Assembly: GCA_037129835.1 (NCBI GenBank)
Contig: JBAXUE010000002.1
Location: forward strand, 2,334-66,333
DNA length: 64,000 nucleotides
Direction of reading: 5' to 3'
Origin: a bacterium
Lineage (GTDB): Bacteria > Patescibacteriota > CPR2 > UBA1875 > CAIMLA01
In this document: positions 2,529-51,197 of the stretch, in pieces
How the letters are laid out: the number at the start of each line of letters is the position of its first letter
Position numbering within the stretch: position 1 is the stretch's first letter
Notes under the pieces: generated by a model
Told to the model about the DNA's origin: nothing
The model's input: only the letters and a program-made list of their open reading frames with translations
The model's database searches: none
Translations under genes and position numbers: made by a program

Positions 2529-5033
2529 TTACAAAGGAGTAATTGTTGGAGTTGTTGTTGGAGTAATTATTAGTGTTGGGGTCGGGGTTGGAGTAATGGT
2601 CGGTGTGGGTGTTGGTGTGGGGATAATTTCACAAACATCTTGTGGTATTTGGGCTGCGTCTGTAGATAATCCGTTCGCTTGCGCCCAGGCAATGATTGGT
2701 GCAAACCACCTAGAATAAGCACCGTCTGTTGCAGGTATTTCTGCGGTTACGGCACCGATAGTTTTTGTTTCGGTATTTTCTGCAGTGGGAGGGCAGGATG
2801 GGTTTACTTGTTTGCCAGTTAATTTATTTATTTGGATGTCGGATGATTGCCCATTAAAGTCAGGTACTTTGTACCAAGAAGGGAAAATATCGGTAACAGT
2901 TTTTTTGCTATTCGCACTAGGTTTTCTTCCAGTAATTGCATCTAGGGTAACTGTTTTAACGCCGCTTGGTCTTTTGAACTGTTCGACAGCAGTATTAGCC
3001 AGAGCTTTTTCCATAAAGTCATGCCAGATAGGAGCAGCAGCGAAGGCACCACCGCCAGAAGTCATTGGAGTGCCATCATTATTGCCAGACCATACCCCGG
3101 CGACTAAGCTTGGAGTATATCCGACGGTCCAAGCATCTTTATAGCTGTTGGTTGTCCCTGTTTTTGCGGCTGCTGGACGTCCGCCAAGAGAGAGGGCACT
3201 ACCAGCACCGAACGTTTGTGCTCTAGCGGAATCGTCTGAAAGAACATTGCTCATTATGTAGGCAACTTGAGGGTCGAGCACTTGTTTACCTGTTTTGTCT
3301 GTATATTCATCGAGTGTTTTGCCTTTGCTGTCTTGAATTTTTACAAACCAACTCGTATCTTTTTTGACACCTTGATTAGCAAAAACTCCATATGCACTTG
3401 TCATGTCTAATAGTTTTACTTCTCCTGCGCCTAGAACAAGGGATAGACCGTATTGGCTTGGGTCATTAAGCGTAGTAATACCCATAGCGTGAGCAGTATC
3501 GATGGTCTGTGTTAGCCCGGCTAGATAAAGTGTTTTTACTGCAGGGATATTTAATGAATTTTGAAGGGCTGTTCTCATCGATACTGGACCCCAGAAACCA
3601 CCACTATAATTCTGGGGAACATAGCCTGCACCGAAATCTGTCTTCAGGTCATAGAGAATACTTCCAGCGCCAGTGTTGGCGTCTTTCCACGCAGTCGCGT
3701 ATGCAAAAGGTTTAAAGGAGGAACCTGGTTGTCTATCGGATATCGCTATATTTACCTGACCATCAATTTCTTCGTTAAAATAATCTCTACTCCCAACCAT
3801 TGCAAGAATCTGCCCTGTTTTTGGATCTATTGCCACGAGACCTGCGTTTGTGGCGCCATAACGACTTTTGTTTTTATCAACATTCGCGGCTACTGCCTCT
3901 TCGGCGGCTTTTTGTTTTTCGAGGTCAATTGAGGTATAGACTTTTAATCCACCAGTATTTACCAACGTTTCCCCATATTTTTTAACGAGTTGTTCTTTGA
4001 CATACATTACAAAATGAGGCGCCTCTATTGAACCATATGGATTATTTGAAAAAATAAGTTTTTCCTTTTTTGCTGCAACCGCTTCGGCTTTTGTAATATA
4101 CTTTTGATCTGCCATAAGATCGATAATCATGTCTTTTCTTGTCATCAGGTCGGTTACATGATTTCCGAAGGGAGAATAATAAGTGGGCGCGTTTGGTAAC
4201 GCAGCCAGAAGGGCGCTTTCTGCGATCGTTAAGTCTTTCATCTCTTTGTTGAAAAATGTACTTGAAGCTACTTTAATACCATAAGCATTTGAGCCATATG
4301 GGATTTCGTTGAGATACATTTTAAGAATGTCATCTTTTTTATACATTTGTTCGATTTCCATTGAAAGAATTATTTCTTTGGCTTTACGAGTAAGAGAACG
4401 TTCATTTGTTAGGATAGCATTTTTTACAAACTGTTGAGTGATTGTAGAGCCGCCGCCTTTTGATGAGTTCCTGGTGATTATACCCGTGACAGCTCGGCCG
4501 ATACCAAAAATGTCAAAGCCCCCGTGTTTATAGAAATTTTTATCCTCAATAGCAACTGTCGCATTTTTTACATTCTTTGGAATCTCATCCCAGCTTGCAA
4601 GTATGCGGTTTTGATCACCGTGTATTTCGTATAAGATTTTGCCATTTCTGTCGAAAATTTGGGTAGATTGGGCGGAAACCTTGGCATTTATTTTATCGGG
4701 GCTCGGTAAGTCCTTAGCAAACCATAGAAGTAGTAAGCAAAAAATAGCAAAAAGAACTAGCACGACAATACCTACCTTGATTAGTCCTTCTTTCGTCGTA
4801 AAAAGATATTTAAGGTATGCTTTTATATCTTTGAATTTAAAGTTTTTAAAATTTAATTTAATGGCAGTAACAGATGAACCAGATTTTACAACCTTGTTGC
4901 TACGAAAAGGTTTTTTTGAGGTTCCAACAGAGCTAGAAACAGAGGCTGTCCTTTTCCTTTTAGAGCGTGGAGATTTTGGGAAAGTGCTGTATTTCTGCTT
5001 AGAGAATCGTGAACTTTTTTTGCCAAAAGGCAT
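2529..5033 (-). CDS. Class A penicillin-binding protein (transglycosylase + transpeptidase), with a basic N-terminal tail and a C-terminal Pro/Thr repeat
   Basis: GT51 motifs (EDKNFYKHGGFD, RKAKE). Transpeptidase SxxK (GSSFKP), SxN (SLN) and KTG (AAKTGT) motifs. A single TM helix. C-terminal PTPTPTPTITPTPTPT. Confidence 0.9.
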   Translation of the reverse strand: MPFGKKSSRFSKQKYSTFPKSPRSKRKRTASVSSSVGTSKKPFRSNKVVKSGSSVTAIKLNFKNFKFKDIKAYLKYLFTTKEGLIKVGIVVLVLFAIFCLLLLWFAKDLPSPDKINAKVSAQSTQIFDRNGKILYEIHGDQNRILASWDEIPKNVKNATVAIEDKNFYKHGGFDIFGIGRAVTGIITRNSSKGGGSTITQQFVKNAILTNERSLTRKAKEIILSMEIEQMYKKDDILKMYLNEIPYGSNAYGIKVASSTFFNKEMKDLTIAESALLAALPNAPTYYSPFGNHVTDLMTRKDMIIDLMADQKYITKAEAVAAKKEKLIFSNNPYGSIEAPHFVMYVKEQLVKKYGETLVNTGGLKVYTSIDLEKQKAAEEAVAANVDKNKSRYGATNAGLVAIDPKTGQILAMVGSRDYFNEEIDGQVNIAISDRQPGSSFKPFAYATAWKDANTGAGSILYDLKTDFGAGYVPQNYSGGFWGPVSMRTALQNSLNIPAVKTLYLAGLTQTIDTAHAMGITTLNDPSQYGLSLVLGAGEVKLLDMTSAYGVFANQGVKKDTSWFVKIQDSKGKTLDEYTDKTGKQVLDPQVAYIMSNVLSDDSARAQTFGAGSALSLGGRPAAAKTGTTNSYKDAWTVGYTPSLVAGVWSGNNDGTPMTSGGGAFAAAPIWHDFMEKALANTAVEQFKRPSGVKTVTLDAITGRKPSANSKKTVTDIFPSWYKVPDFNGQSSDIQINKLTGKQVNPSCPPTAENTETKTIGAVTAEIPATDGAYSRWFAPIIAWAQANGLSTDAAQIPQDVCEIIPTPTPTPTITPTPTPTLIITPTTTPTITPL

Positions 5034-24515: not shown

Positions 24516-24543
24516 AAAAGAGTCCGAAAGGGCTCTTTTTGTA
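24516..24543 (+). terminator. Rho-independent terminator after fusA
   Basis: GAGTCC-gaaa-GGGCTC stem with a GNRA-type loop, followed by TTTTT. Confidence 0.6.
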
Positions 24544-24602
24544 TGGCTAAATTAGTATATATTTATTACAATATAACCAAAGAGTTTAATAAGGGAGATA
24601 AT

Positions 24603-25499
24603 ATGGAACCAGATTCAAGCGAAGAGAACATCGAAGTAGAAACAAATGAAGTAAGTACGGAAAGTATGGAACAACCAGCAGAAGATGTGAGGCCAGAAGA
24701 ACCTGTAGTGCGGGAAATGCCAAACCAGCCAGCACCAGTAGTAGAAGAACCGGCACCACAGCAAGCAACTCCGGCAGTACAAGCACCAAGAGCCACTGCT
24801 AGTGTTTCTGGTGATAAAGTAAGTGTGTCTGGCTATCTGGGCAGTCTGAAGAAACTTTTTACAAATCCGACTGAATTCATCAAGGAGCTTTCGGCCAAAA
24901 TTGACAACACGATAATATTTGTTTTAATAAATGTCGCATTTATGGTTTTGGCTTATTTTATAACATCTATAATTGGTTCTCTAAGCGCGGAGATAGATAT
25001 TACTGGCCAGCTTTTTTGGGAAATAATAAAAGTTCAATTTTTTACAGTTATATCAGGAATTGGTTTTCTCGCTATCGTTGCCTTGATCGCCTTTTTGTCG
25101 GGTAAAATTAGTCAAAAACAAGCTACTTTTGCAGATAATTTGGCAGTGAGCTCTGTCTTTTCACTTAATTTCTTGGCAATCGGTGTTAGCTCCTTTTTCG
25201 GACTTTTTTACATTTGGTTTCCTAGTATTGCTCAATTTGTCTTACTTTTACAAACAGTGATACCAAGCCTAGCATTGGTCTATTCAACCGTAATTTTGAT
25301 TCAAGCACTCGTCGAATTGTACCAATATTCATATCTCAGAGCAGTCTTGATATATGTTACATCAAGCATAGTAATATTGTTTATAGTGGGGCAACTATTT
25401 ACGTCTTTTGACTTATATTTTAATGTAGACTTCGGCTCAGTAGGTGGGGGCATCAGTGGAATCAGTTTAGTTAGTATGATGAACAATCTTAGTTTCTAA
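24603..25499 (+). CDS. Membrane protein with an acidic/Pro-rich N-terminal region and a C-terminal multi-TM domain (unknown function)
   Basis: An AAGGGAGA RBS precedes the ATG at 24603. The N-terminal ~90 aa are E/P/A/V-rich (EEPAPQQATPAVQAP), followed by about 5 TM helices. Confidence 0.55.
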   Translation: MEPDSSEENIEVETNEVSTESMEQPAEDVRPEEPVVREMPNQPAPVVEEPAPQQATPAVQAPRATASVSGDKVSVSGYLGSLKKLFTNPTEFIKELSAKIDNTIIFVLINVAFMVLAYFITSIIGSLSAEIDITGQLFWEIIKVQFFTVISGIGFLAIVALIAFLSGKISQKQATFADNLAVSSVFSLNFLAIGVSSFFGLFYIWFPSIAQFVLLLQTVIPSLALVYSTVILIQALVELYQYSYLRAVLIYVTSSIVILFIVGQLFTSFDLYFNVDFGSVGGGISGISLVSMMNNLSF

Positions 25500-26888: not shown

Positions 26889-27209
26889 ATGGCAGAAAAG
26901 ACTGAAAAACAAAGAATCCGAATCAAGCTAAAGGCGTATGATAACAAAATCATCGATCAGTCTACGGCTCAAATCATTGAAACAGCTGTTCGCAGTGGTG
27001 CTAAAGTAGCGGGTCCAATCCCATTACCCACCGATAGAACACCGATAACGGTTCAGAGTGCTAGTTTTGTCAACAAGAATGCAAGAGAGCAGTTTGAGAT
27101 GAGAGTTCACAAGAGACTCCTTGATATTACTGATTTTTCTGCAAAAACAGTTGATAGTCTAATGAGTTTATCCCTACCTGCCGGAGTTGATATCGAAATC
27201 AAGATGTAA
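26889..27209 (+). CDS. rpsJ: 30S ribosomal protein S10
   Basis: [11 protein letters not shown]...LD..T..IV...K..GA.V.GP.PLPT signature. Confidence 0.95.
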
Positions 27210-27210
27210 T

Positions 27211-27241
27211 AAAATCCCCCGAGAAATCGGGGGATTTTTTA
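27211..27241 (+). terminator. Strong rho-independent terminator immediately after rpsJ
   Basis: AATCCCCCGA-gaaa-TCGGGGGATT stem followed by TTTTTT. Confidence 0.8.
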
Positions 27242-27310
27242 ATATTATCAAAGTGATATTTTGTCAAAGTTGGATAATAAATAGTTTATGACAAATAAAG
27301 GATTTGAATT

Positions 27311-28129
27311 ATGTACCGCGCTTGTAAAATGAATGTAAATACAATTGATAAAAAAGTGATAGTCGAGATAACTAGGGTATGTAATCTCAATTGTGAACAT
27401 TGTTTGTACTCGGAGTTTTTAAATACACCAACTTTATATATGCCGATGGAGAAATATATCGAAATTATTGAGACATTTGCCTCCAAAGGATTTTCTAGAG
27501 TGGTTCTTACGGGAGGGGAGCCTACATTGCACCCTCAGCTGATTAAAATGTCGAAATACGCACGAGCTAGAGGCTTTACGGTTTCTATATGTACAAATGG
27601 TGTTATAAATATGGATGAAGAAATGCTCATAGCATTTCCTTTTGCAACCTTTACAATTAGTCTGGATTCGCATATACCCGAGGTTCACGACTTATTTCGT
27701 GGTCGCAAGGGAGCATTTAAGAAAACTATACTTTTCATAGAAAAGCTTAAACAAAAAGGTAAGAATGTTTCTATACACATAGCCCTCGGGGAGTTTAATA
27801 TAGATCGGATAGATGAAACTATTACATACGCTCTGGAGTTTAGCCGTGAGGTAGTCCTCGCTACTGTATATCTAAAGAATCAAAATGATAATATCGAATA
27901 TCAATCGAAGCTTCAAGCAGTAAAAAAACGTTATTTATTATCACAAGAAGTGATTTTGGTCGGTTTTGCGGAATATTGTGAAAACCCAGATTGTCTTTAT
28001 GGGAAAAATATTGTATTTATTAATAAAGATGGAAACAGTGTTGATTGTTATTGGAAGAAAAACGGTGGTAAGATAATATCAATAGATTCAGCATTAACTA
28101 GGAAAGTCGTAGGCATTGAAGAGAATTAG
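27311..28129 (+). CDS. Small radical SAM enzyme (272 aa)
   Basis: CX3CX2C motif (C24-N-L-N-C28-E-H-C31), a glycine-rich GGEP SAM motif at 68-71, and three further Cys near the C-terminus (C223, C228, C246) that could hold an auxiliary cluster. An AAAGGA RBS is present. Confidence 0.8.
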   Translation: MYRACKMNVNTIDKKVIVEITRVCNLNCEHCLYSEFLNTPTLYMPMEKYIEIIETFASKGFSRVVLTGGEPTLHPQLIKMSKYARARGFTVSICTNGVINMDEEMLIAFPFATFTISLDSHIPEVHDLFRGRKGAFKKTILFIEKLKQKGKNVSIHIALGEFNIDRIDETITYALEFSREVVLATVYLKNQNDNIEYQSKLQAVKKRYLLSQEVILVGFAEYCENPDCLYGKNIVFINKDGNSVDCYWKKNGGKIISIDSALTRKVVGIEEN

Positions 28130-29201
28130 CGATAAATATCAAATATTTGATAAGAATGAGGTTGAGATACTAGCAGAACAGCTAGAATCTGGGAAATTGT
28201 CCGGTACCAGTGTAGCTATTCAAGATTATGAAGATGATTTGTCTCAATTCTTTGATGCAAAGTTTGCCGTTGCTGTATCGTCTGGTACTGCCGCTATTCA
28301 AGTTGCACTATTTTCGCTCGGGCTTTCGAAAGGGGATAAAGTCATGTTAACACCGACTTGTCCAATGATGACAGTGTATCCGATAATTTTTGCAGGTTTA
28401 GTGCCGGTATTTGTTGATACTGAAGCAGATTCATTCGGTTTTGATATTGAAGATGTGGTTAAAAAGTTTGATTCTAAAGTAAGGGCGGTTATAGATATCC
28501 CAATGTGGGGTTATCCAATGGACGTGAAGAAGCGTCAGGAATTTTGTCATAGTCATGACTTGTTATATATCTTAGACTTAGCGCAAGCTCATGGCAGCAA
28601 ATTCGGAGGCAAATATCTATCAAAATATTGTGACGTCGCTTGCTTTAGCACGCACGATAGAAAGATACTTTCCACGGGGGAGGGTGGATTTATATTAACT
28701 GACGATAGGCAGACTGCTGAATCGGCAAAGTCTTTCACTCAATTTGGTTTCATGAAAGGTGTTGATTTCGGGTTAAATTATAAATTGGGTGCGTTGCAAG
28801 CAACCATAGGAAAAAACAGATTGAAACAGGTAAATAGTCAATTAGTAAAACGTAAAGAAAATTCAGATTTACTAAGATCCCTTATTAAAAATAATTCAGT
28901 TAGTGAATTTAAGATAACAGAAAGGGGAACTGCCAACTATTATACATATTTACTTAGTTTAAGGTTTAAGGATAATCTGGGTTTTATCAAATATCTTGAA
29001 GAGAAAGGTATCCCATCAGATATTACGAGGTATTCATATCTTCCTTTGTATGAATTGCCAGCATTTTTAGAATATGGGACGGTTTGTGCAAATGCCGAAC
29101 TCTTATCAAAAACGATAACTACCATCCCGGTTCACCCGGGGATTACAGTGGATGATATCCAATATATAGCAGAGTGTATTAATTTATATGAGGAGAGATA
29201 A
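28116..29201 (+). CDS. DegT/DnrJ/EryC1/StrS-family PLP-dependent aminotransferase
   Basis: Family motifs AVAVSSGTAAIQVAL, GDKVMLTPT, PVFVD, ILDLAQAHG, and FSTHDRK-ILSTGEGG with the catalytic Lys in the canonical position. TTG start overlapping the upstream gene by 14 nt. Confidence 0.8.
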   Translation: MKRISDKYQIFDKNEVEILAEQLESGKLSGTSVAIQDYEDDLSQFFDAKFAVAVSSGTAAIQVALFSLGLSKGDKVMLTPTCPMMTVYPIIFAGLVPVFVDTEADSFGFDIEDVVKKFDSKVRAVIDIPMWGYPMDVKKRQEFCHSHDLLYILDLAQAHGSKFGGKYLSKYCDVACFSTHDRKILSTGEGGFILTDDRQTAESAKSFTQFGFMKGVDFGLNYKLGALQATIGKNRLKQVNSQLVKRKENSDLLRSLIKNNSVSEFKITERGTANYYTYLLSLRFKDNLGFIKYLEEKGIPSDITRYSYLPLYELPAFLEYGTVCANAELLSKTITTIPVHPGITVDDIQYIAECINLYEER

Positions 29202-29659
29202 TGGAGAAACATTTTACAGCTTCGGCTTTAGTATTTAATTCGGCTGGACATATATTACTATTAAAACATAAAAAGTTAGGCGTTTGGCTTGACCCGGGTG
29301 GGCATATTGAATCTGACGAAACGCCAGATGACGCCATAGTACGAGAAGTAAAGGAAGAAACAGGGCTTGATGTAGAGATAATTTCTGAAATCGACACCAA
29401 CCTTTCTGACCCAATCAATGATATAACTCCGCTAGCAAAACCATATACTATTCTTTCCGAACTGATTAGTAAGGGTGATGAATCTCATTATCATATAGAC
29501 TTATTCTATATTTGTAAGATAGTAGGTGGTGAAACATTGTCTGCAGGTGAAGGGGAGTCAGTAGAAGTAGGGTTTTTCTCTGAAAAAGAGATTGGGGAAC
29601 TCGAATTATTCCCTAATTTTAGAAAACTGCTCGAGAAAGTATTTTTAGAACGCGGATAG
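29201..29659 (+). CDS. Nudix hydrolase
   Basis: Nudix box GGHIESDETPDDAIVREVKEETGL (GX5EX7REUXEEXGU). The ATG shares an A with the aminotransferase stop (TAATG). A GGAGAG RBS is present. Confidence 0.8.
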   Translation: MEKHFTASALVFNSAGHILLLKHKKLGVWLDPGGHIESDETPDDAIVREVKEETGLDVEIISEIDTNLSDPINDITPLAKPYTILSELISKGDESHYHIDLFYICKIVGGETLSAGEGESVEVGFFSEKEIGELELFPNFRKLLEKVFLERG

Positions 29660-29698
29660 TTTTTAATAAGTGTGATTCGCATCAAAGTTATTGTTAAT

Positions 29699-29730
29699 AA
29701 GCGCTCTGCATAGAGCGTTTATTATTTTTG
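29699..29730 (+). terminator. Hairpin plus T-run terminator after the Nudix gene
   Basis: CGCTCT-gcat-AGAGCG stem followed by TTTATTATTTTT. Confidence 0.5.
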
Positions 29731-29744
29731 TATCTCAGATAACG

Positions 29745-29773
29745 TTGACATATCTTGTTTCTGGTAGTAAAAT
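29745..29773 (+). promoter_or_regulatory. Consensus sigma70 promoter TTGACA-N17-TAAAAT driving the GC-rich small ORF
   Basis: TTGACA at 29745-29750, an exactly 17-nt spacer, and TAAAAT at 29768-29773. A GGAGGG RBS follows about 35 nt downstream. Confidence 0.55.
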
Positions 29774-29813
29774 TACCAAGTTTTGTACCCTAGTCCCGTA
29801 GGAGGGATGCAAC

Positions 29814-30134
29814 ATGGCAAGACCACGAAAGCGGCTTGACCCAACGTTGGCTGGCAATCTGATATTCTCTATTGCCGGTATCTCCGATGATCACAACTTG
29901 GTGGAAATCGCTGACATCGTCAAAGAAGAGATCGGATTGTGGCAAGCTTGCATCGATCACCCCGAAAGGCGCAACTACCGACTCCATGTAGTCGGCGGCT
30001 CGGACCAGAAACTCCCAGATTTCGTCCTTGAGCACAAAGATGAGACATATACGTCTGCAGTTGCAGACGTATGGGACCTCGACGTAGAGGTTCTGGACGA
30101 AGATTCTCACCTTCGGGTGACCTGTCGTCTCTGA
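29814..30134 (+). CDS. 106-aa hypothetical protein in a compositionally foreign (about 50% GC) island
   Basis: A GGAGGG RBS lies 5 nt before the ATG, with its own promoter upstream. The acidic product has no recognisable motif. Overlapping antisense ORFs exist because of the high GC. Confidence 0.4.
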   Translation: MARPRKRLDPTLAGNLIFSIAGISDDHNLVEIADIVKEEIGLWQACIDHPERRNYRLHVVGGSDQKLPDFVLEHKDETYTSAVADVWDLDVEVLDEDSHLRVTCRL

Positions 30135-30205
30135 ACGAGAAGTAGGTACAAAAGGGTGTCGTCGCTAACAAGCGGCGGCACCCAGTGTCTTTTCTTGAAA
30201 TATCG

Positions 30206-30234
30206 TTGACAAAAGACTATATATTTACTATACT
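30206..30234 (+). promoter_or_regulatory. Consensus sigma70 promoter TTGACA-N17-TATACT for the rplC operon
   Basis: TTGACA at 30206-30211, a 17-nt spacer, and TATACT at 30229-30234. Confidence 0.55.
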
Positions 30235-30321
30235 TATTCATGCGTAAAAAAATACGTTAAACCGTCGAGGGATGGGCAAGTCCAAAGGATACTGTCTATC
30301 TGTCGAAATATATTTTGTTGA

Positions 30322-30369
30322 TTAAAATCCGCCTATGCAAAAAGCTACGGACGGACAAGAAGGCGAACA
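30322..30369 (+). promoter_or_regulatory. Leader segment upstream of rplC that duplicates the tuf leader
   Basis: AAAATCCGCCTATGCAAAAAGCTACGGACGGACAAGAAGGCGAACAATG versus the tuf leader. The shared core is ATCCGCCTAYG..GC.ACGGACGGACAAGAAGG.GA. Confidence 0.45.
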
Positions 30370-30999
30370 ATGAAGGCATTAATAGGTAAGAAAGTTGGAA
30401 TGACCCACATCTTTGATGAAAAGGGTAATGTAGTTCCTGTGACCGTCGTACAGGCGGGACCTTGTACTGTTGTTCAAGTTAAAACTGTAGAAATTGATGG
30501 CTATTCTGCCGTTCAGCTCGGTTTTGGCTTAAATAAAAGAATTAATAAACCGCTTGCCGGGCATGTAAAAGATTCAGGAGCAGTACCACGTACTTTGCGA
30601 GAATTTGAGATGACTGAGGATATCGCAAGCGAAAACGAAGAAACACCTTCTGCTATAAAAGTTGGTGATACATTTGACGTTTCTGTTTTCAGCGAAGGGG
30701 ATCAGCTCCAAGTAACTGGTACTTCCAAGGGTAAAGGATTTGCAGGTACTATAAAGCGTCATAATTTTACAACTGGTCCAAAGACACACGGATCACATAA
30801 TTATCGACAACCAGGCTCTATAGGTTCTGGCTATCCACAGCACGTCATGAAAGGCAAAAAGATGGCGGGTCAGATGGGCGCTGAACAAGTAAGCGTCAAA
30901 AACTTAAAAATTGTTAAAATTGATTTAGCCAACAATACCGTTGCGATAAAGGGTGCAGTACCCGGCCCTCGTAAAGGTTTAGTGATTTTGAGAGGTTAA
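30370..30999 (+). CDS. rplC: 50S ribosomal protein L3
   Basis: MKALIGKKVGMTHIFDEKG... canonical L3. Confidence 0.95.
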   Translation: MKALIGKKVGMTHIFDEKGNVVPVTVVQAGPCTVVQVKTVEIDGYSAVQLGFGLNKRINKPLAGHVKDSGAVPRTLREFEMTEDIASENEETPSAIKVGDTFDVSVFSEGDQLQVTGTSKGKGFAGTIKRHNFTTGPKTHGSHNYRQPGSIGSGYPQHVMKGKKMAGQMGAEQVSVKNLKIVKIDLANNTVAIKGAVPGPRKGLVILRG

Positions 31000-37829: not shown

Positions 37830-38426
37830 ATGATGAGAGACAATTTTAGCAGAGACAACAGAGGAATAGACCAAGAACCTCCAGAATTTGAGGAAAAAGT
37901 TATTCAAATTGATAGAGTTACTCGTGTGGTTAAGGGCGGACGTAGAATGAGATTTAGAGCTACCGTAGTTGTTGGTAATAAAAAAGGCAAAGTCGGAGTT
38001 GGTGTCGAAAAGGGCAACGAAGTAATGACAGCGGTCCAAAAAGCCACAAATAGGGCTAAAAGTAATATAGTTACTATTAACCTAAACGGAACTACTATTT
38101 TACACGAAGTTTCCGCAAGGCTTGCTGGCGCATATGTTTTCTTGAAACCAGCCTCTGAAGGAACTGGCGTTATCGCTGGTGGAGCAGTTAGAGCAGTACT
38201 CGAAGCAGCCGGCGTCAAAGACATACTATCAAAGATGATTGGATCAAACTCCAAGATTAATAATGCATATGCCACCGTGGCAGCACTCGAGAGTCTTAAA
38301 AAGGCTCCAGAAGTGACCGCAGTGGTAGAGAAAAAGACTACAAAAAAAGTAGAAGTAGAGACAGCCGAAGTTAAAAAACCAGAAGCCAAAAAAACCAAAA
38401 AAGAATTAGTGGAAGAGGCTAAATAA
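37830..38426 (+). CDS. rpsE: 30S ribosomal protein S5 with a Lys-rich C-terminal extension
   Basis: S5 dsRBD-like domain plus C-terminal domain ([22 protein letters not shown]). The extension is about 40 aa. Confidence 0.93.
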
Positions 38427-38872
38427 TGAAATTAGAAAATTTATTTGGAAATGTTAAAAAAGATGCCAAGAGGGTTGGCCGTGGTATCGGCTCAGGAAAA
38501 GGCAAAACTGCAGGCAGGGGAACCAAGGGGCAACTTTCACGTACTGGTAAAAAGATTCGACCTGGATTTGAAGGTGGTCAATTACCTTTAGCTCAAAGAG
38601 TTCCAAAGAAGCCTGGATTCAAGTCATTATCTCCTAAAGCTGTTACGATTACTTTAGATAAATTAAATGGTATTAAAGCTGGAAGCAAAATCAACTCAGC
38701 AAAGTTATTCGAGATGGGCCTAATAAGTACACTAACCGAAAAGTTTAAGATAGTTGCAAATGATAAATATGACAACAGTCTGGTCCTCGATACTCTAGCA
38801 ATTTCTGAAGGTGCTAAAAAAATAGTAGAAAAAACAGCAAAAAAGACAGAAACCATAGTAGAGACTAAATAA
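38426..38872 (+). CDS. rplO: 50S ribosomal protein L15
   Basis: MKLENL......[21 protein letters not shown] signature. It directly follows rpsE with no L30 gene between them. Confidence 0.93.
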
Positions 38873-48736: not shown

Positions 48737-48811
48737 GCCGCCTTAGCTCAGTGGTAGAGCAACTGTTTTGTAAACAGTCGGTCGTCGGTTCAAGTCCGAC
48801 AGGCGGCTCCA
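48737..48811 (+). tRNA. tRNA-Thr (anticodon TGT), CCA encoded
   Basis: Acceptor GCCGCCT/AGGCGGC. Anticodon stem ACTGT/ACAGT with loop TTTGTAA. T-loop TTCAAGT. 75 nt. Confidence 0.9.
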
Positions 48812-48910
48812 CGTCGCAATTCGTTATCTGGTTTCGCGGATAAACTAAAGTTTACCGCTTCACCATTTTACGATTGCTCCTTTCCGAGAAAAATCTACAA
48901 TTTTCCTCGG
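48812..48910 (+). ncRNA. Conserved structured trailer element downstream of tRNA-Thr(TGT) (copy A); function unknown
   Basis: Hairpin 1 GCGG[A]TAAAC-taaa-GTTTACCGC, then TTCACCA..CGATT, then hairpin 2 CCGAG[A]AAAA..TTTTCCTCGG. About 75% identical to the copy at 49211-49309, with compensatory stem changes. Confidence 0.4.
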
Positions 48911-48931
48911 CACCTAGGGATTACAACTTGA

Positions 48932-49017
48932 GGGGAGTTACCGAAGCGGTCAAACGGAGCAGACTGTAAATCTGTTGGCATACGCCTTCGGGGGTTCGAA
49001 TCCCTCACTCCCCACCA
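48932..49017 (+). tRNA. tRNA-Tyr (anticodon GTA), long variable arm, CCA encoded
   Basis: Acceptor GGGGAGT/ACTCCCC. Anticodon stem GCAGA/TCTGT with loop CTGTAAA. 86 nt. Confidence 0.9.
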
Positions 49018-49134
49018 TTATTCGCTAAAGCTACGAATGGCAAGCCAAGAGTAGATTTTGCGAATAATTTCCGTCCGAAGCTATAAGTGCGAAGGAGGAC
49101 CGAAACAAAATAACATTAAAATGTGCGCCCACGC

Positions 49135-49210
49135 GCCCACCTAGCTCAGTCGGTAGAGCGCATCCATGGTAAGGATGAGGTCATCGGTTCAATCCCGATG
49201 GTGGGCTCCA
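49135..49210 (+). tRNA. tRNA-Thr (anticodon GGT), CCA encoded
   Basis: Acceptor GCCCACC/GGTGGGC. Anticodon stem CATCC/GGATG with loop ATGGTAA. 76 nt. Confidence 0.9.
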
Positions 49211-49309
49211 CGTCATAATGCATTAGCTGGTTACGCGGATTAGCTGGAACTAACCGCTTCACCATATCACGATTACTCTTTTCCGAGAAAAACTTACGTT
49301 TTTCCTCGG
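49211..49309 (+). ncRNA. Conserved structured trailer element downstream of tRNA-Thr(GGT) (copy B); function unknown
   Basis: Hairpin 1 GCGG[A]TTAG-ctggaa-CTAACCGC (the stem sequence differs from copy A but pairing is preserved), TTCACCA..CGATT, and hairpin 2 identical in its stem to copy A. Confidence 0.4.
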
Positions 49310-49343
49310 TCATGAGGGAATAAATATAAGAATAGGAGATAAA

Positions 49344-49514
49344 ATGGCATCAAAGAAAAAAGATATCCGTCCAGTGATCACCCTTGAGTGTACTGAGTGT
49401 AAGGAGCGTAATTATGCTACTACTAAAAACACTCGGAATACCACAGCCCGCGTAGAACTTAAAAAGTTCTGTAAACGTGAGCACATTCACACATTGCACC
49501 GCGAAACAAAATAA
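49344..49514 (+). CDS. rpmG: 50S ribosomal protein L33
   Basis: 56 aa with a C..C...C..C zinc ribbon (CTECKERNY...FCKREH). A GGAGA RBS is present. Confidence 0.9.
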
Positions 49515-49519
49515 ATGGT

Positions 49520-49630
49520 TTGTCATCCTTGTCATTCGACTCTGAGGTGAGAGACACCTCATCGCTCAGACTCGAAGAGCGGAAGCAAGGATCTCTTTCA
49601 CCAGAGATTCCTGCCTTCGCAGGAATGACA
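49520..49630 (+). repeat. Palindromic intergenic element of the TGTCATCC family (copy 5, longest), between rpmG and tRNA-Trp
   Basis: TGTCATCC at the 5' end, a long internal hairpin (CGACTCTGAGGTG..CACCTCA.CGCTCAGACTCG), the GGATCTC box, a hairpin CCTGC-cttc-GCAGG, and a terminal GAATGACAG. Confidence 0.5.
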
Positions 49631-49743
49631 GTATAGTTTCTTCACAGTGGGGTCCCCGAAATCTGCAGGATTTAAGGGGAAGAGGAAGAGTCGCGAAAAG
49701 TTATAGCAACAAAGTTGCGAATACTGACAGCGGACTCTGACGA

Positions 49744-49817
49744 AGGGGCGTAGTTAAACGGTATAACGTAGGTCTCCAAAACCTTTGTTGAGGGTTCGAT
49801 TCCTTCCGCCCCTGCCA
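49744..49817 (+). tRNA. tRNA-Trp (anticodon CCA)
   Basis: Acceptor AGGGGCG/CGCCCCT. Anticodon loop CTCCAAA. T-loop TTCGATT. Discriminator G followed by CCA. 74 nt. Confidence 0.85.
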
Positions 49818-49925
49818 GATTGAGCGCCAGTTAATACCACTGGCGACCGAGGTGCCTAGGTCACCACGGAATATAACCAAGACCAACAAAAAATCTCTTA
49901 AATCTTTACGGTTTAGGGGATTTTT

Positions 49926-51197
49926 TTAGATTTCGACTACTTTACGATCACGAACCGCTAGTTTGACGTTTAAGTTTCGAATTAATTGGGTCTTTTCGGA
50001 CTCAGAACCCTTTTCGAGCACATATTTGGCATAACCTTTGATTACCTCTGTTTTGGAATATTTTTTGTTGGGATTCATGGTTTCGAGCATGTTCTCGAAC
50101 TTTTTAATGGCTTTGGCCAGTCCTGGCTCAATCGATATCTTCTTAACCGTCAGTCTACTGGAAATGATTAGTAGCTGTTCCACTAGGTCCCTTTCGGTTA
50201 TATACGGCTCGTGGCATTCATCTTTGGCGTGTCTGACACAGTGATAGTAAACATGACGGTTTTTATCCCCATTTTTAAGTTTCTTGAACTTTTCTTCACC
50301 AACCATCATTGCACCGCAACTGTAGCAGGTCAAAAATCTCCGAAATGTAAATTCCCTGGAACCCCATTTAACTCTTTTAGGGGCTACGATCTGTTTTTGG
50401 GCTTCGTCAAACAGCTCTTTGGTCACTAATGGTTCATGGGAACCTTTATACCATTTCCCGCTACCGATCGGATATTCAAACATTCCATAGTAGAAAGGAT
50501 TCTTTAGCATTAAATATATTGAGCTTAGGTTCACAAGCTTTCCTTTTCTTGAAGTGGCTCCAATGATGTCTAACCAGACTTTGAGAGTGCGGCCACTCTC
50601 ACCTTTAGCCGCTCGTTTGAACATCTCTGTGACAAACGGTCCACGTTCGGGATCAATGACAATATCATGAACCCCGGCCATCACTCGATTGTAATAACCG
50701 ATTGGCGGCATACACGGTCTCCAGCCCATCTCACATTTAGCCCTGATGCCTCTTTTTACGCTCTCGCCTCTGTTGTCGTTTTCAAGCTTGGCTTGAGAGC
50801 AGAGAATCATCAGCATAAACTTCTCGCTCGGAGTGTTTGTAAAGCTTTGGGTGAAGGTTCTGATTTTAAGAAGTTTCTTATCGTCCATCAGATCCACTAG
50901 CGAACCCAAGTCGCCAGCATTTCTTGAAAGTCGGTCGGGTGCCCAGGTAAGTAGGCTATTTACCTCGCCGCTCCTTAAATCGGTCAGTAACTGCATAAAA
51001 ACTGGTCGTTGTCCCGATTGTTTGGCGGAATAGCTTTCCTGAAGAACTTTGACGACATTAATGCCTTCTTTGACTGCTAACTCCTTCATTTCTTTGATTT
51101 GAGAATCAATTGACATCGCTTGCCGCTCATCAGACTCGGATGATTTTCTGGCGTAAAGGCAGTACTTTAATTCGACTTTATCTGCTGTATTTTCCAT
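49926..51197 (-). CDS. Large serine recombinase (resolvase/integrase family)
   Basis: N-terminal resolvase catalytic domain (YARKSSESDERQ..SIDSQ.....V.E), a recombinase domain, and a C-terminal zinc-ribbon-like CYSCG...YYHC. 423 aa. Confidence 0.8.
   Translation of the reverse strand: MENTADKVELKYCLYARKSSESDERQAMSIDSQIKEMKELAVKEGINVVKVLQESYSAKQSGQRPVFMQLLTDLRSGEVNSLLTWAPDRLSRNAGDLGSLVDLMDDKKLLKIRTFTQSFTNTPSEKFMLMILCSQAKLENDNRGESVKRGIRAKCEMGWRPCMPPIGYYNRVMAGVHDIVIDPERGPFVTEMFKRAAKGESGRTLKVWLDIIGATSRKGKLVNLSSIYLMLKNPFYYGMFEYPIGSGKWYKGSHEPLVTKELFDEAQKQIVAPKRVKWGSREFTFRRFLTCYSCGAMMVGEEKFKKLKNGDKNRHVYYHCVRHAKDECHEPYITERDLVEQLLIISSRLTVKKISIEPGLAKAIKKFENMLETMNPNKKYSKTEVIKGYAKYVLEKGSESEKTQLIRNLNVKLAVRDRKVVEI

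Follow-up and report, generated by a model that had tools for sequence, protein, structure and literature searches.

In the canonical S10 operon, rplC directly follows rpsJ within one transcription unit—what, then, does an operon for three enzymes do between these two ribosomal protein genes, and how did it come to stand there? The question is raised by a 64,000-nucleotide stretch of DNA (the window) from a bacterium of the Patescibacteriota lineage CPR2, positions 2,334 to 66,333 of contig JBAXUE010000002.1, in which genes for a radical S-adenosylmethionine (SAM) enzyme, a pyridoxal phosphate-dependent aminotransferase of the DegT/DnrJ/EryC1/StrS family, and a Nudix hydrolase (together, the trio) separate rpsJ from rplC. 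The parent metagenome contig is 372 kb long, and six other assemblies carry the locus in identical form. The trio proves to be a genuine module of three genes, conserved and not previously described—an accessory, horizontally mobile operon that forms a self-contained unit. The best explanation overall for its role, on which we are evenly divided, is that it would aminate a sugar hydroxyl borne on a nucleotide and then trim the phosphates.

The recurrence of the trio shows that its genes belong together, as the original prediction had held. Its gene order is repeated at 11 further distinct loci, which come from candidate-phyla bacteria, a DPANN archaeon, and other metagenome-assembled genomes (MAGs), and the flanking genes differ each time. 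In the rpsP operon of L007 the trio separates the KH gene from trmD; it follows a histidine kinase gene in Berkelbacteria (L009 and L013) and an AI-2E transporter gene in L011, and stands between gap and cysS in L098; L014, L093, L094, and L095 are further loci with this order. On a contig of the DPANN lineage Diapherotrites (P0188) the same domain order is followed by a CYTH triphosphatase gene, the 251-residue radical SAM protein being known there from its Pfam domain only. Across the loci the proteins keep their sizes (radical SAM, 255-280 residues; DegT, 357-365; Nudix, 149-164), with short gaps or overlaps between the genes. Around 20 further homologues of the three proteins lie on contigs whose lengths coincide across three homologue searches, an Atribacteria MAG included, and the closest homologues of all three come from candidate-phyla genomes. 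Our literature search found no paper linking radical SAM, DegT, and Nudix proteins in a relevant way.

It could be argued that the three genes are mere neighbours with unrelated housekeeping roles, their place in the S10 operon being a curiosity of annotation, and none of the three products reaches a curated equivalog cutoff, so that each by itself is no more than a member of its family. Against this stand the constant order and the short overlaps or gaps, retained despite a complete turnover of the flanks, and the DegT-Nudix pair, which is also kept in Proteobacteria; synteny effectively refutes the idea, and we find it scarcely credible.

A fourth gene occasionally stands beside the trio, encoding an AAA_28 P-loop NTPase domain, a CYTH triphosphatase, a divergent PurC-like protein, or a second Nudix protein. 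The AAA_28 gene, found by one trio, has no NCBIfam match and is taken here as kinase-like. The PurC-like genes near two radical SAM-DegT loci proved mutually unrelated. The Diapherotrites contig also carries, upstream of its trio, a gene for a 1204-residue class-I aminoacyl-tRNA synthetase with an inserted Nudix domain, and a further stand-alone Nudix gene adjoins another synthetase.

In the window, the trio is laid out as a compact operon spanning 27311-29659 on the forward strand, as are all the features of the rpsJ-rplC gap. It follows the gene string fusA, a gene for a Yip1-domain membrane protein, tuf, and rpsJ. The S10 gene rpsJ (26889-27209; PF00338) is the last gene of the tuf-rpsJ unit and ends in an intrinsic terminator (27211-27238) with a 12-bp stem of which 6 pairs are GC, a 4-nt loop, and a T-run. 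The gene for the 272-residue radical SAM protein (27311-28129) overlaps the DegT gene (28116-29201; 361 residues) by 14 nt, the TTG start of the latter being preceded 9 nt upstream by AGGAAAG. At the second junction, TAATG, the ATG of the Nudix gene (29201-29659; 152 residues) shares its A with the DegT TAA and is served by a GAGGAG ribosome-binding site. A second intrinsic terminator (29695-29724; 13-bp stem and T-run) closes the operon. The strong terminator of rpsJ, the coupling of the trio by overlaps, and the terminator of its own had all been predicted, and the sequence agrees on each point; the window thus departs from the canonical S10 arrangement.

Relatives were surveyed through 80 metagenome loci retrieved via the L3 protein, in 75 of which rpsJ lies upstream of rplC on the same strand with a measurable spacer. 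None of the 75 carries trio genes between rpsJ and rplC, and the median spacer is 144 bp. The original prediction of an accessory operon inserted at this site is therefore upheld, and its counter-case—a trio ancestral at this position in all relatives—finds no support in the relatives examined. As the trio is kept across distant lineages at unrelated sites and is absent from this site in relatives, it is accessory and mobile. Its composition is not foreign (GC and GC content at third codon positions, GC3, lie within about 1.4 standard deviations of the window genes, with GC3 z-scores of -0.1 to -0.6), and a search of the trio borders for direct or inverted repeats, an integrase, or a transposase gave nothing convincing. 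The ordinary composition and the lack of border repeats or a recombinase suggest that the transfer is old or came from a similar genome.

The position of the trio becomes less surprising once the closest relatives are considered. The spacer is 3160 bp in the window, where it contains two units, each closed by a terminator, and a separate promoter for rplC. It is also enlarged in the relatives closest by L3 identity: 840 bp, without the trio, in the closest one (L100; 95% identity in EF-Tu and 91% in S10), 1353 bp in L101, 1417 bp in L102, and 3109 bp in L103, with enlarged spacers in L112 and L163 as well. The contents of L101 (a 130-residue open reading frame, ORF, on the opposite strand) and L103 (a pilin-like gene and others) are unrelated. 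The clade thus has a hot spot for insertions of unrelated content in its rpsJ-rplC spacer, a point that the original prediction missed. Since a terminator and a dedicated rplC promoter divide the S10 cluster of this clade into a tuf-rpsJ unit and a unit from rplC onward, and insertions into the gap recur, the location of the trio is less remarkable than an insertion into a highly conserved locus would suggest—the insertion predicted earlier stands, and its exceptional character is diminished.

What the trio makes must be approached through its proteins, beginning with the radical SAM enzyme. The Pfam model Radical_SAM (PF04055) matches it with E=1.3e-23 (84.5 bits vs a 29.5-bit cutoff), and the superfamily hallmarks CX3CX2C and GGE are both present. 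In the family alignment of 38 sequences, C24-X3-C28-X2-C31, the LTGGEPT motif, and C223-X4-C228-X12-G241-X4-C246 are invariant, as is C94 in a CTNG motif. The cysteine motif, the GGEP motif, and the three C-terminal cysteines singled out in the original prediction are thus all invariant, and the suggestion that these three could hold an auxiliary cluster gains ground: C228-X12-G-X4-C246 matches the CX9-15GX4C hairpin signature of SPASM/twitch auxiliary-cluster domains. A full SPASM domain has seven cysteines and two clusters, while the twitch domain is a shortened form with one auxiliary cluster. Members of the family end 10-25 residues past the hairpin motif, and the protein is therefore predicted to be of the minimal twitch type rather than full SPASM. 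The N-terminal MYRxCKMN, with a conserved Cys5, is encoded at all loci and is part of the family, a feature that the original prediction overlooked; many members are called from the second Met (MN...), 18 nt downstream of the true-looking start (L007, L009, L094, and others).

The family is compact. Around 55 clusters of 255-280 residues, with 41-49% identity to the window protein, were found among 5.8 billion proteins, and the tier beyond consists of generic SPASM-type enzymes with about 30% identity over the core only. Among the matches listed, at least two true members occur in GTDB species representatives. No curated NCBIfam model is reached, the best scoring 83 bits vs a cutoff of 380. 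By fold comparison the closest solved structure is that of BlsE, followed by viperin (19.8), SkfB (19.6), GDGT/MAS (19.2), SuiB (18.4), anSME (18.0), and MoaA (18.0); the best folds are those of twitch/SPASM enzymes. Nucleoside or nucleotide sugars are the target of BlsE, viperin, and MoaA, and anSME acts as a dehydrogenase; SkfB and SuiB act on peptides, and GDGT/MAS on lipids. On these comparisons, the protein appears to resemble a sugar- or nucleotide-acting twitch enzyme.

Several named identities were tried and set aside. A housekeeping assignment such as QueE had been named as one finding that would refute the original prediction; family models and fold comparison place the protein with neither QueE nor the glycyl-radical activases. 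A BtrN-type aminocyclitol dehydrogenase was rejected for want of a specific sequence or fold relation to BtrN and of a 2-deoxy-scyllo-inosose (DOI) synthase or BtrS context. Membership of a known defence system was also rejected, the matches to pVip and PDC-S07 being confined to the radical SAM core.

The second and third proteins are typical of their families. The DegT protein matches PF01041 with E=4e-63 (214 bits vs a 19.8-bit cutoff), and its FSTHDRK motif aligns with the Schiff-base lysine of solved relatives; in DegT-family dehydratases a His takes the place of the SxHxxK lysine. The predicted family and catalytic Lys are thereby confirmed. The NCBIfam equivalog cutoffs for PseC, LegC, DesI, ArnB, WecE, and RfbH are not reached, the best-scoring models (LegC, PseC, WecE, ArnB, and DesI) all falling far under theirs, and the solved relatives are mostly aminotransferases of nucleoside diphosphate (NDP) sugars; WbpE and NtdA are among the solved relatives. 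The Nudix protein, also as predicted, matches PF00293 (E=2.6e-17; 63.5 bits vs a 21.1-bit cutoff) and has an intact Nudix box, GX5EX7REUXEEXGU, read as G34-HIESD-E-TPDDAIV-REVKEETGL; its best solved relative is 1JRK, a "Nudix homolog" in the PDB.

The DegT subfamily reaches further than the radical SAM family, and this reach is the most informative evidence on function. Members with 46-50% identity occur in cultured Chromobacterium, Pseudomonas chlororaphis, Paraburkholderia, Burkholderia, Trinickia, Dyella, and myxobacteria. In Chromobacterium violaceum (L096, 7931-18422), P. chlororaphis (L097), a metagenome contig (L099), and Mycetohabitans megaplasmids (L208), the gene belongs to a 12-gene cluster. 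The window DegT is 47-48% identical to the proteins of these four, and the window Nudix 44-55% identical to theirs (47%, full length, for Chromobacterium)—about equal to the identities with other candidate-phyla trios. The gene directly upstream of DegT in these clusters encodes a Gfo/Idh/MocA oxidoreductase, not a radical SAM enzyme. The order runs Gfo/Idh/MocA, DegT, Nudix, a second DegT, a flavin adenine dinucleotide (FAD) enzyme, a HAD phosphatase, and a di-iron desaturase-like hydroxylase, and continues with an MTAP-type nucleoside phosphorylase, a NudK-type Nudix, a binding protein and MFS transporter, and HAD. The Chromobacterium dehydrogenase has been solved by structural genomics (PDB 3M2T, "probable dehydrogenase") and gives weak matches to the UDP-GlcNAc 3-dehydrogenase (UDP-GlcNAc, uridine diphosphate N-acetylglucosamine) and inositol 2-dehydrogenase models.

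The DegT-Nudix pair is thus orthologous in both architectures, with an upstream slot held either by a radical SAM enzyme or by a dehydrogenase dependent on nicotinamide adenine dinucleotide (NAD). The radical SAM hosts are presumably anaerobes and the Gfo/Idh/MocA hosts aerobes. The same kind of alternation is known from deoxystreptamine synthesis, where BtrN is a radical SAM enzyme and NeoA uses NAD. It is mainly because a Gfo/Idh/MocA dehydrogenase fills its slot that we assign the radical SAM protein a putative dehydrogenase role; the radical SAM dehydrogenases BtrN and anSME use an auxiliary cluster as electron acceptor.

Two plasmid loci touch on the same pairings. A Yersinia frederiksenii plasmid (L207, 6760-7465) bears a DegT-Nudix remnant—the last ~60 DegT residues and an intact Nudix, 39% identical to that of the window—and breaks off beside genes for a relaxase and an IS6 transposase. 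A distant analogue is found in Streptomyces globisporus: on one of its plasmids (L209; NZ_CP108665.1, 6578-17668), genes for a 344-residue radical SAM enzyme of the twitch type (hhalign probability 96%), a DegT protein, and a dTMP-kinase-like protein stand in a row, in the vicinity of a PurC-like gene, an exonuclease gene, several Nudix genes, and an MFS transporter gene. Here the pairing of radical SAM and DegT may have been used in a separate, unrelated cluster for nucleoside modification.

From these parts a three-step pathway can be proposed. The twitch radical SAM enzyme would take a hydrogen from a carbinol carbon and pass the second electron to its auxiliary [4Fe-4S] cluster, yielding a ketone and acting as an oxygen-free stand-in for the NAD-dependent Gfo/Idh/MocA dehydrogenase. 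DegT, to judge from its family, would convert the ketone to an amine. The Nudix enzyme, again by family, would cut a pyrophosphate, turning a nucleoside triphosphate (NTP) into a nucleoside monophosphate (NMP) and pyrophosphate, or an NDP-X into NMP and X-phosphate—either advancing the pathway or detoxifying a triphosphate. Overall, a secondary hydroxyl on a nucleotide-borne sugar would become an amino group, and the phosphates would then be trimmed. This general scheme of oxidation, transamination, and pyrophosphohydrolysis we consider rather probable.

The substrate is harder to name. The phosphatase, exporter, and nucleoside phosphorylase of the proteobacterial cluster speak for amination at a ribose hydroxyl of a nucleotide, and the AAA_28, CYTH, PurC-like, and second Nudix neighbours of some trios fit nucleotide chemistry. 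By analogy with puromycin-type pathways, our favoured candidate, put forward tentatively and at less than even confidence, is the ribose 3'-OH of a purine NTP, which would give a 3'-amino-3'-deoxy-NMP. A bolder version is somewhat more doubtful: that ultra-small symbionts, bacteria of the candidate phyla radiation (CPR) and DPANN archaea, possess a minimal, oxygen-independent route to chain-terminating 3'-amino-3'-deoxy or amino-dideoxy nucleotides of the type of puromycin or 3'-amino-3'-deoxyguanosine (ADG). Here, a new family of radical SAM nucleotide dehydrogenases would supply a product used against hosts, competitors, or viruses, with the Nudix enzyme protecting the producer. Taken by itself, any role in defence or as a weapon appears improbable.

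Several observations weigh against amination of a nucleotide ribose. The proteobacterial clusters that bridge the two architectures are uncharacterised and hold many extra genes, and the equivalence of the upstream slot is read from position. Neither the window operon nor the other trio loci carry a Pur3/AdgE-type phosphatase, an exporter, or a resistance gene. The pairing of Gfo/Idh/MocA with DegT is common to C3 amination of NDP-sugars and to kanosamine and inosamine synthesis, and does not single out ribose. The same radical SAM fold supports dehydration or decarboxylation in BlsE, DesII, and AprD4. Lastly, the best solved relative of the DegT protein (7B0D, ~35% identity) is named glutamine--scyllo-inositol transaminase.

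Some of these points lead to a different substrate: an NDP-hexose, aminated for instance from UDP-GlcNAc to UDP-GlcNAc3N or in a reaction of the type UDP-glucose to UDP-kanosamine, for an envelope or pilin glycan, with the Nudix enzyme releasing the amino sugar phosphate or controlling the pool. The LegC, PseC, WecE, ArnB, and DesI models that score best on the DegT protein, though far under their cutoffs, point this way, as do its solved relatives and the weak score of the Chromobacterium dehydrogenase on the UDP-GlcNAc 3-dehydrogenase model; a dehydrogenase followed by DegT is also the standard route of C3 amination (WbpB/WbpE, GnnA/GnnB, and RifL/RifK). However, no glycosyltransferase, acetyltransferase, nucleotidyltransferase, or dehydratase gene is conserved beside the trio in any locus, and it would be strange for a glycan pathway to be constantly accompanied by a Nudix enzyme that destroys the activated sugar. 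In the proteobacterial relatives, moreover, the accompanying genes are for exporters and an MTAP-type nucleoside phosphorylase, not for glycans. We hold this reading to be unlikely.

The original prediction leaned towards an aminocyclitol step of the BtrN/BtrS type, to which an inositol dehydrogenase/StsC type may be added—an inositol or deoxy-inosamine would be oxidised and then transaminated. A twitch-type auxiliary-cluster motif as in BtrN, the name of the top solved DegT relative, and the weak match of the Chromobacterium dehydrogenase to the inositol 2-dehydrogenase model all agree with it; a diamino-cyclitol would call for two aminotransferases, and two DegT genes are present in the proteobacterial cluster. 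The cyclitol genes themselves are missing: neither the window nor the surroundings of any trio contain a gene for DOI synthase (whose absence the original prediction had noted for the neighbourhood) or inositol-phosphate synthase, and candidate-phyla bacteria are not known as inositol producers. The constant, coupled Nudix gene and the nucleoside phosphorylase of the relatives would have no role in cyclitol chemistry. An aminocyclitol product is accordingly very improbable.

A further alternative keeps the nucleotide and changes the reaction: a viperin-like or BlsE/AprD4-like dehydratase would take away an adjacent hydroxyl as the ketone forms, and would lead to an amino-dideoxy nucleotide chain terminator for antiviral defence or as a weapon. 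The PADLOC pVip models score 72-76 bits, on the radical SAM core only, and viperins often adjoin nucleotide kinases, which may be compared with the AAA_28-domain P-loop gene, possibly for a kinase, that follows one trio. Small three-gene nucleoside-antibiotic clusters also exist, such as thmA-C, which combines a radical SAM enzyme, a tailoring enzyme, and an NTPase (PMC12691670). The prokaryotic viperin model of NCBIfam (NF038283), however, gives 64.2 bits, far from its 180-bit cutoff, so that the protein falls outside pVip, and viperins have no auxiliary cluster, whereas the twitch cysteines are invariant in the trio family. A plain NAD dehydrogenase in the slot of the orthologous clusters argues for simple oxidation, and members of the family were found neither in viral contigs (IMG/VR search) nor in defence-island-like contexts. 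We regard a dehydratase as improbable, and oxidation followed by transamination of a nucleotide-borne sugar is retained as the preferred reading.

The remainder of the rpsJ-rplC gap also deserves description, as the original prediction rightly made the trio part of its content and overlooked a second cassette, the rplC promoter, and a leader. Downstream of the operon, a promoter-like site (29745-29773; TTGACA-17-TAAAAT) precedes an ORF for a 106-residue acidic protein (29814-30134) with a GGAGGG ribosome-binding site, and a terminator (30154-30183; 13-bp stem with 9 GC pairs) closes this cassette. A second promoter-like site (30206-30234; TTGACA-17-TATACT) and a leader of ~135 nt (30235-30369) then serve rplC (30370-30999), with which the downstream ribosomal protein unit opens. 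A 12-nt direct repeat (29739-29750 and 30200-30211), which includes the -35 box, brackets the cassette.

The 106-residue ORF is compositionally foreign (GC 0.52, GC3 0.55, z +4.8 vs the window genes). Only two clusters of homologues were found among 1.84 billion representatives, with 58% and 49% identity, and their conserved length indicates that the ORF is real. It has no Pfam, PHROG, PADLOC, fold, or literature match and no IMG/VR homologue. A structured RNA at 29780-30195 was considered, since the region is GC-rich, folds with a z-score of -5.7, and has a promoter and a terminator of its own; the absence of an Rfam match, the ribosome-binding site, and the two protein homologues of conserved length ruled it out. 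A functional tie to the trio was likewise rejected, as none of the other trio loci carries the ORF; ORFs of the same length that follow the trio in L009 and L013 are unrelated in sequence.

In L100, positions 4164-5000 hold the rpsJ terminator, a promoter, a GC-rich 157-residue ORF, a terminator, a second promoter, and a leader—the layout of the window minus the trio. The 157-residue ORF is unrelated to the 106-residue one, and the two look like a swappable ORF cassette beside a duplicated rplC promoter. The rplC promoter and the ~135-nt leader align well between the window and L100, with conserved stretches such as ACTGTCTATCTGTCGAAAT. No match to it turned up in Rfam or among the more distant relatives; the leader is a candidate for autoregulation by a ribosomal protein.

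Elsewhere in the window, the 318-residue Yip1-domain membrane protein gene between fusA and tuf (24543-25499) is a further break in the str/S10 string. Between rpsE and rplO (37830-38872) there is no ORF, the short L30 gene not having been searched for; absence of L30 is typical of candidate-phyla (Patescibacteria) genomes. A cluster of tRNA genes (Thr, Tyr, Thr, and Trp) is followed directly by a minus-strand large serine recombinase gene (49926-51197) and by ORFs without Pfam matches, and this region (48737-51197) may be an integrated element at tRNA-Trp.

Were the proposed pathway correct, the trio would introduce a new radical SAM family of ~260 residues that takes over, under anaerobic conditions, the task of the Pur10-type NAD dehydrogenases of aerobic pathways, and the replacement of NeoA by BtrN would have gained a second example. 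Organisms whose genomes are among the smallest known would then be seen to retain three genes sufficient to make an aminated nucleotide or an amino sugar; signs of secondary or defensive metabolism are rare in candidate-phyla bacteria and DPANN archaea. The interest thus lies in a new enzyme family and in possible antimetabolite chemistry in minimal-genome organisms. The chemistry could be approached first in culturable bacteria, as the uncharacterised 12-gene cluster is present in Chromobacterium, P. chlororaphis, Burkholderia relatives, and myxobacteria, and one of its enzymes already has a crystal structure (3M2T).

How, finally, does the trio compare with known systems? The two models offered by the original prediction fit poorly. 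The DesII/DesI analogy fails because the order of reactions is wrong. BtrN/BtrS, set against NeoA, does provide a precedent for a small twitch radical SAM enzyme, of similar size and with a single auxiliary-cluster domain, replacing an NAD dehydrogenase before DegT; in sequence and fold, however, the likeness is not borne out, as BtrN shows no detectable relation in the family profile and a weaker fold match than BlsE, viperin, SkfB, anSME, and MoaA. The BtrN system also has cyclitol genes, whereas the trio loci have none and keep a constant Nudix partner. BlsE, the cytosylglucuronate decarboxylase of blasticidin S synthesis, is 18% identical, its profile match is limited to the N-terminal core (45.6 bits, residues 14-144), and its decarboxylation differs from the oxidation proposed here. 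Viperin and pVip lack the auxiliary-cluster cysteines, and known pVip systems have no DegT partner. WbpB/WbpE, GnnA/GnnB, RifL/RifK, and NtdC/NtdA share the logic of a dehydrogenase followed by a DegT aminotransferase; in contrast to the trio, they use NAD enzymes, have no Nudix, and lie in glycan or antibiotic clusters.

The better analogue appears to be the core formed by Pur10/Pur4/Pur7 of Streptomyces alboniger and AdgB/C/D. In Photorhabdus luminescens, adgB-adgC-adgD are homologues of pur10, pur4, and pur7 in the order dehydrogenase, DegT, Nudix, with which the Gfo/Idh/MocA, DegT, and Nudix genes of the proteobacterial clusters agree, and together with the phosphatase gene adgE they suffice for the production of ADG from guanosine triphosphate in Escherichia coli (PMC9239236). 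In the puromycin pathway, Pur4 is the aminotransferase, and Pur7 is a Nudix enzyme that gives NMP and pyrophosphate and protects the producer (PMC11641026). The likeness to the trio is one of family and gene order: oxidation of a sugar hydroxyl (predicted for the trio), DegT, and Nudix, encoded consecutively. Two differences remain—the first enzyme of the Pur and Adg cores is of the Gfo/Idh/MocA NAD type where the window has a radical SAM enzyme, and Pur and Adg add a phosphatase (Pur3/AdgE) and exporter or resistance functions, which the proteobacterial clusters share as HAD and MFS genes and the window operon lacks. By this analogy, the trio is best classed as a radical SAM-oxidant version of the dehydrogenase/DegT/Nudix amination pathway.

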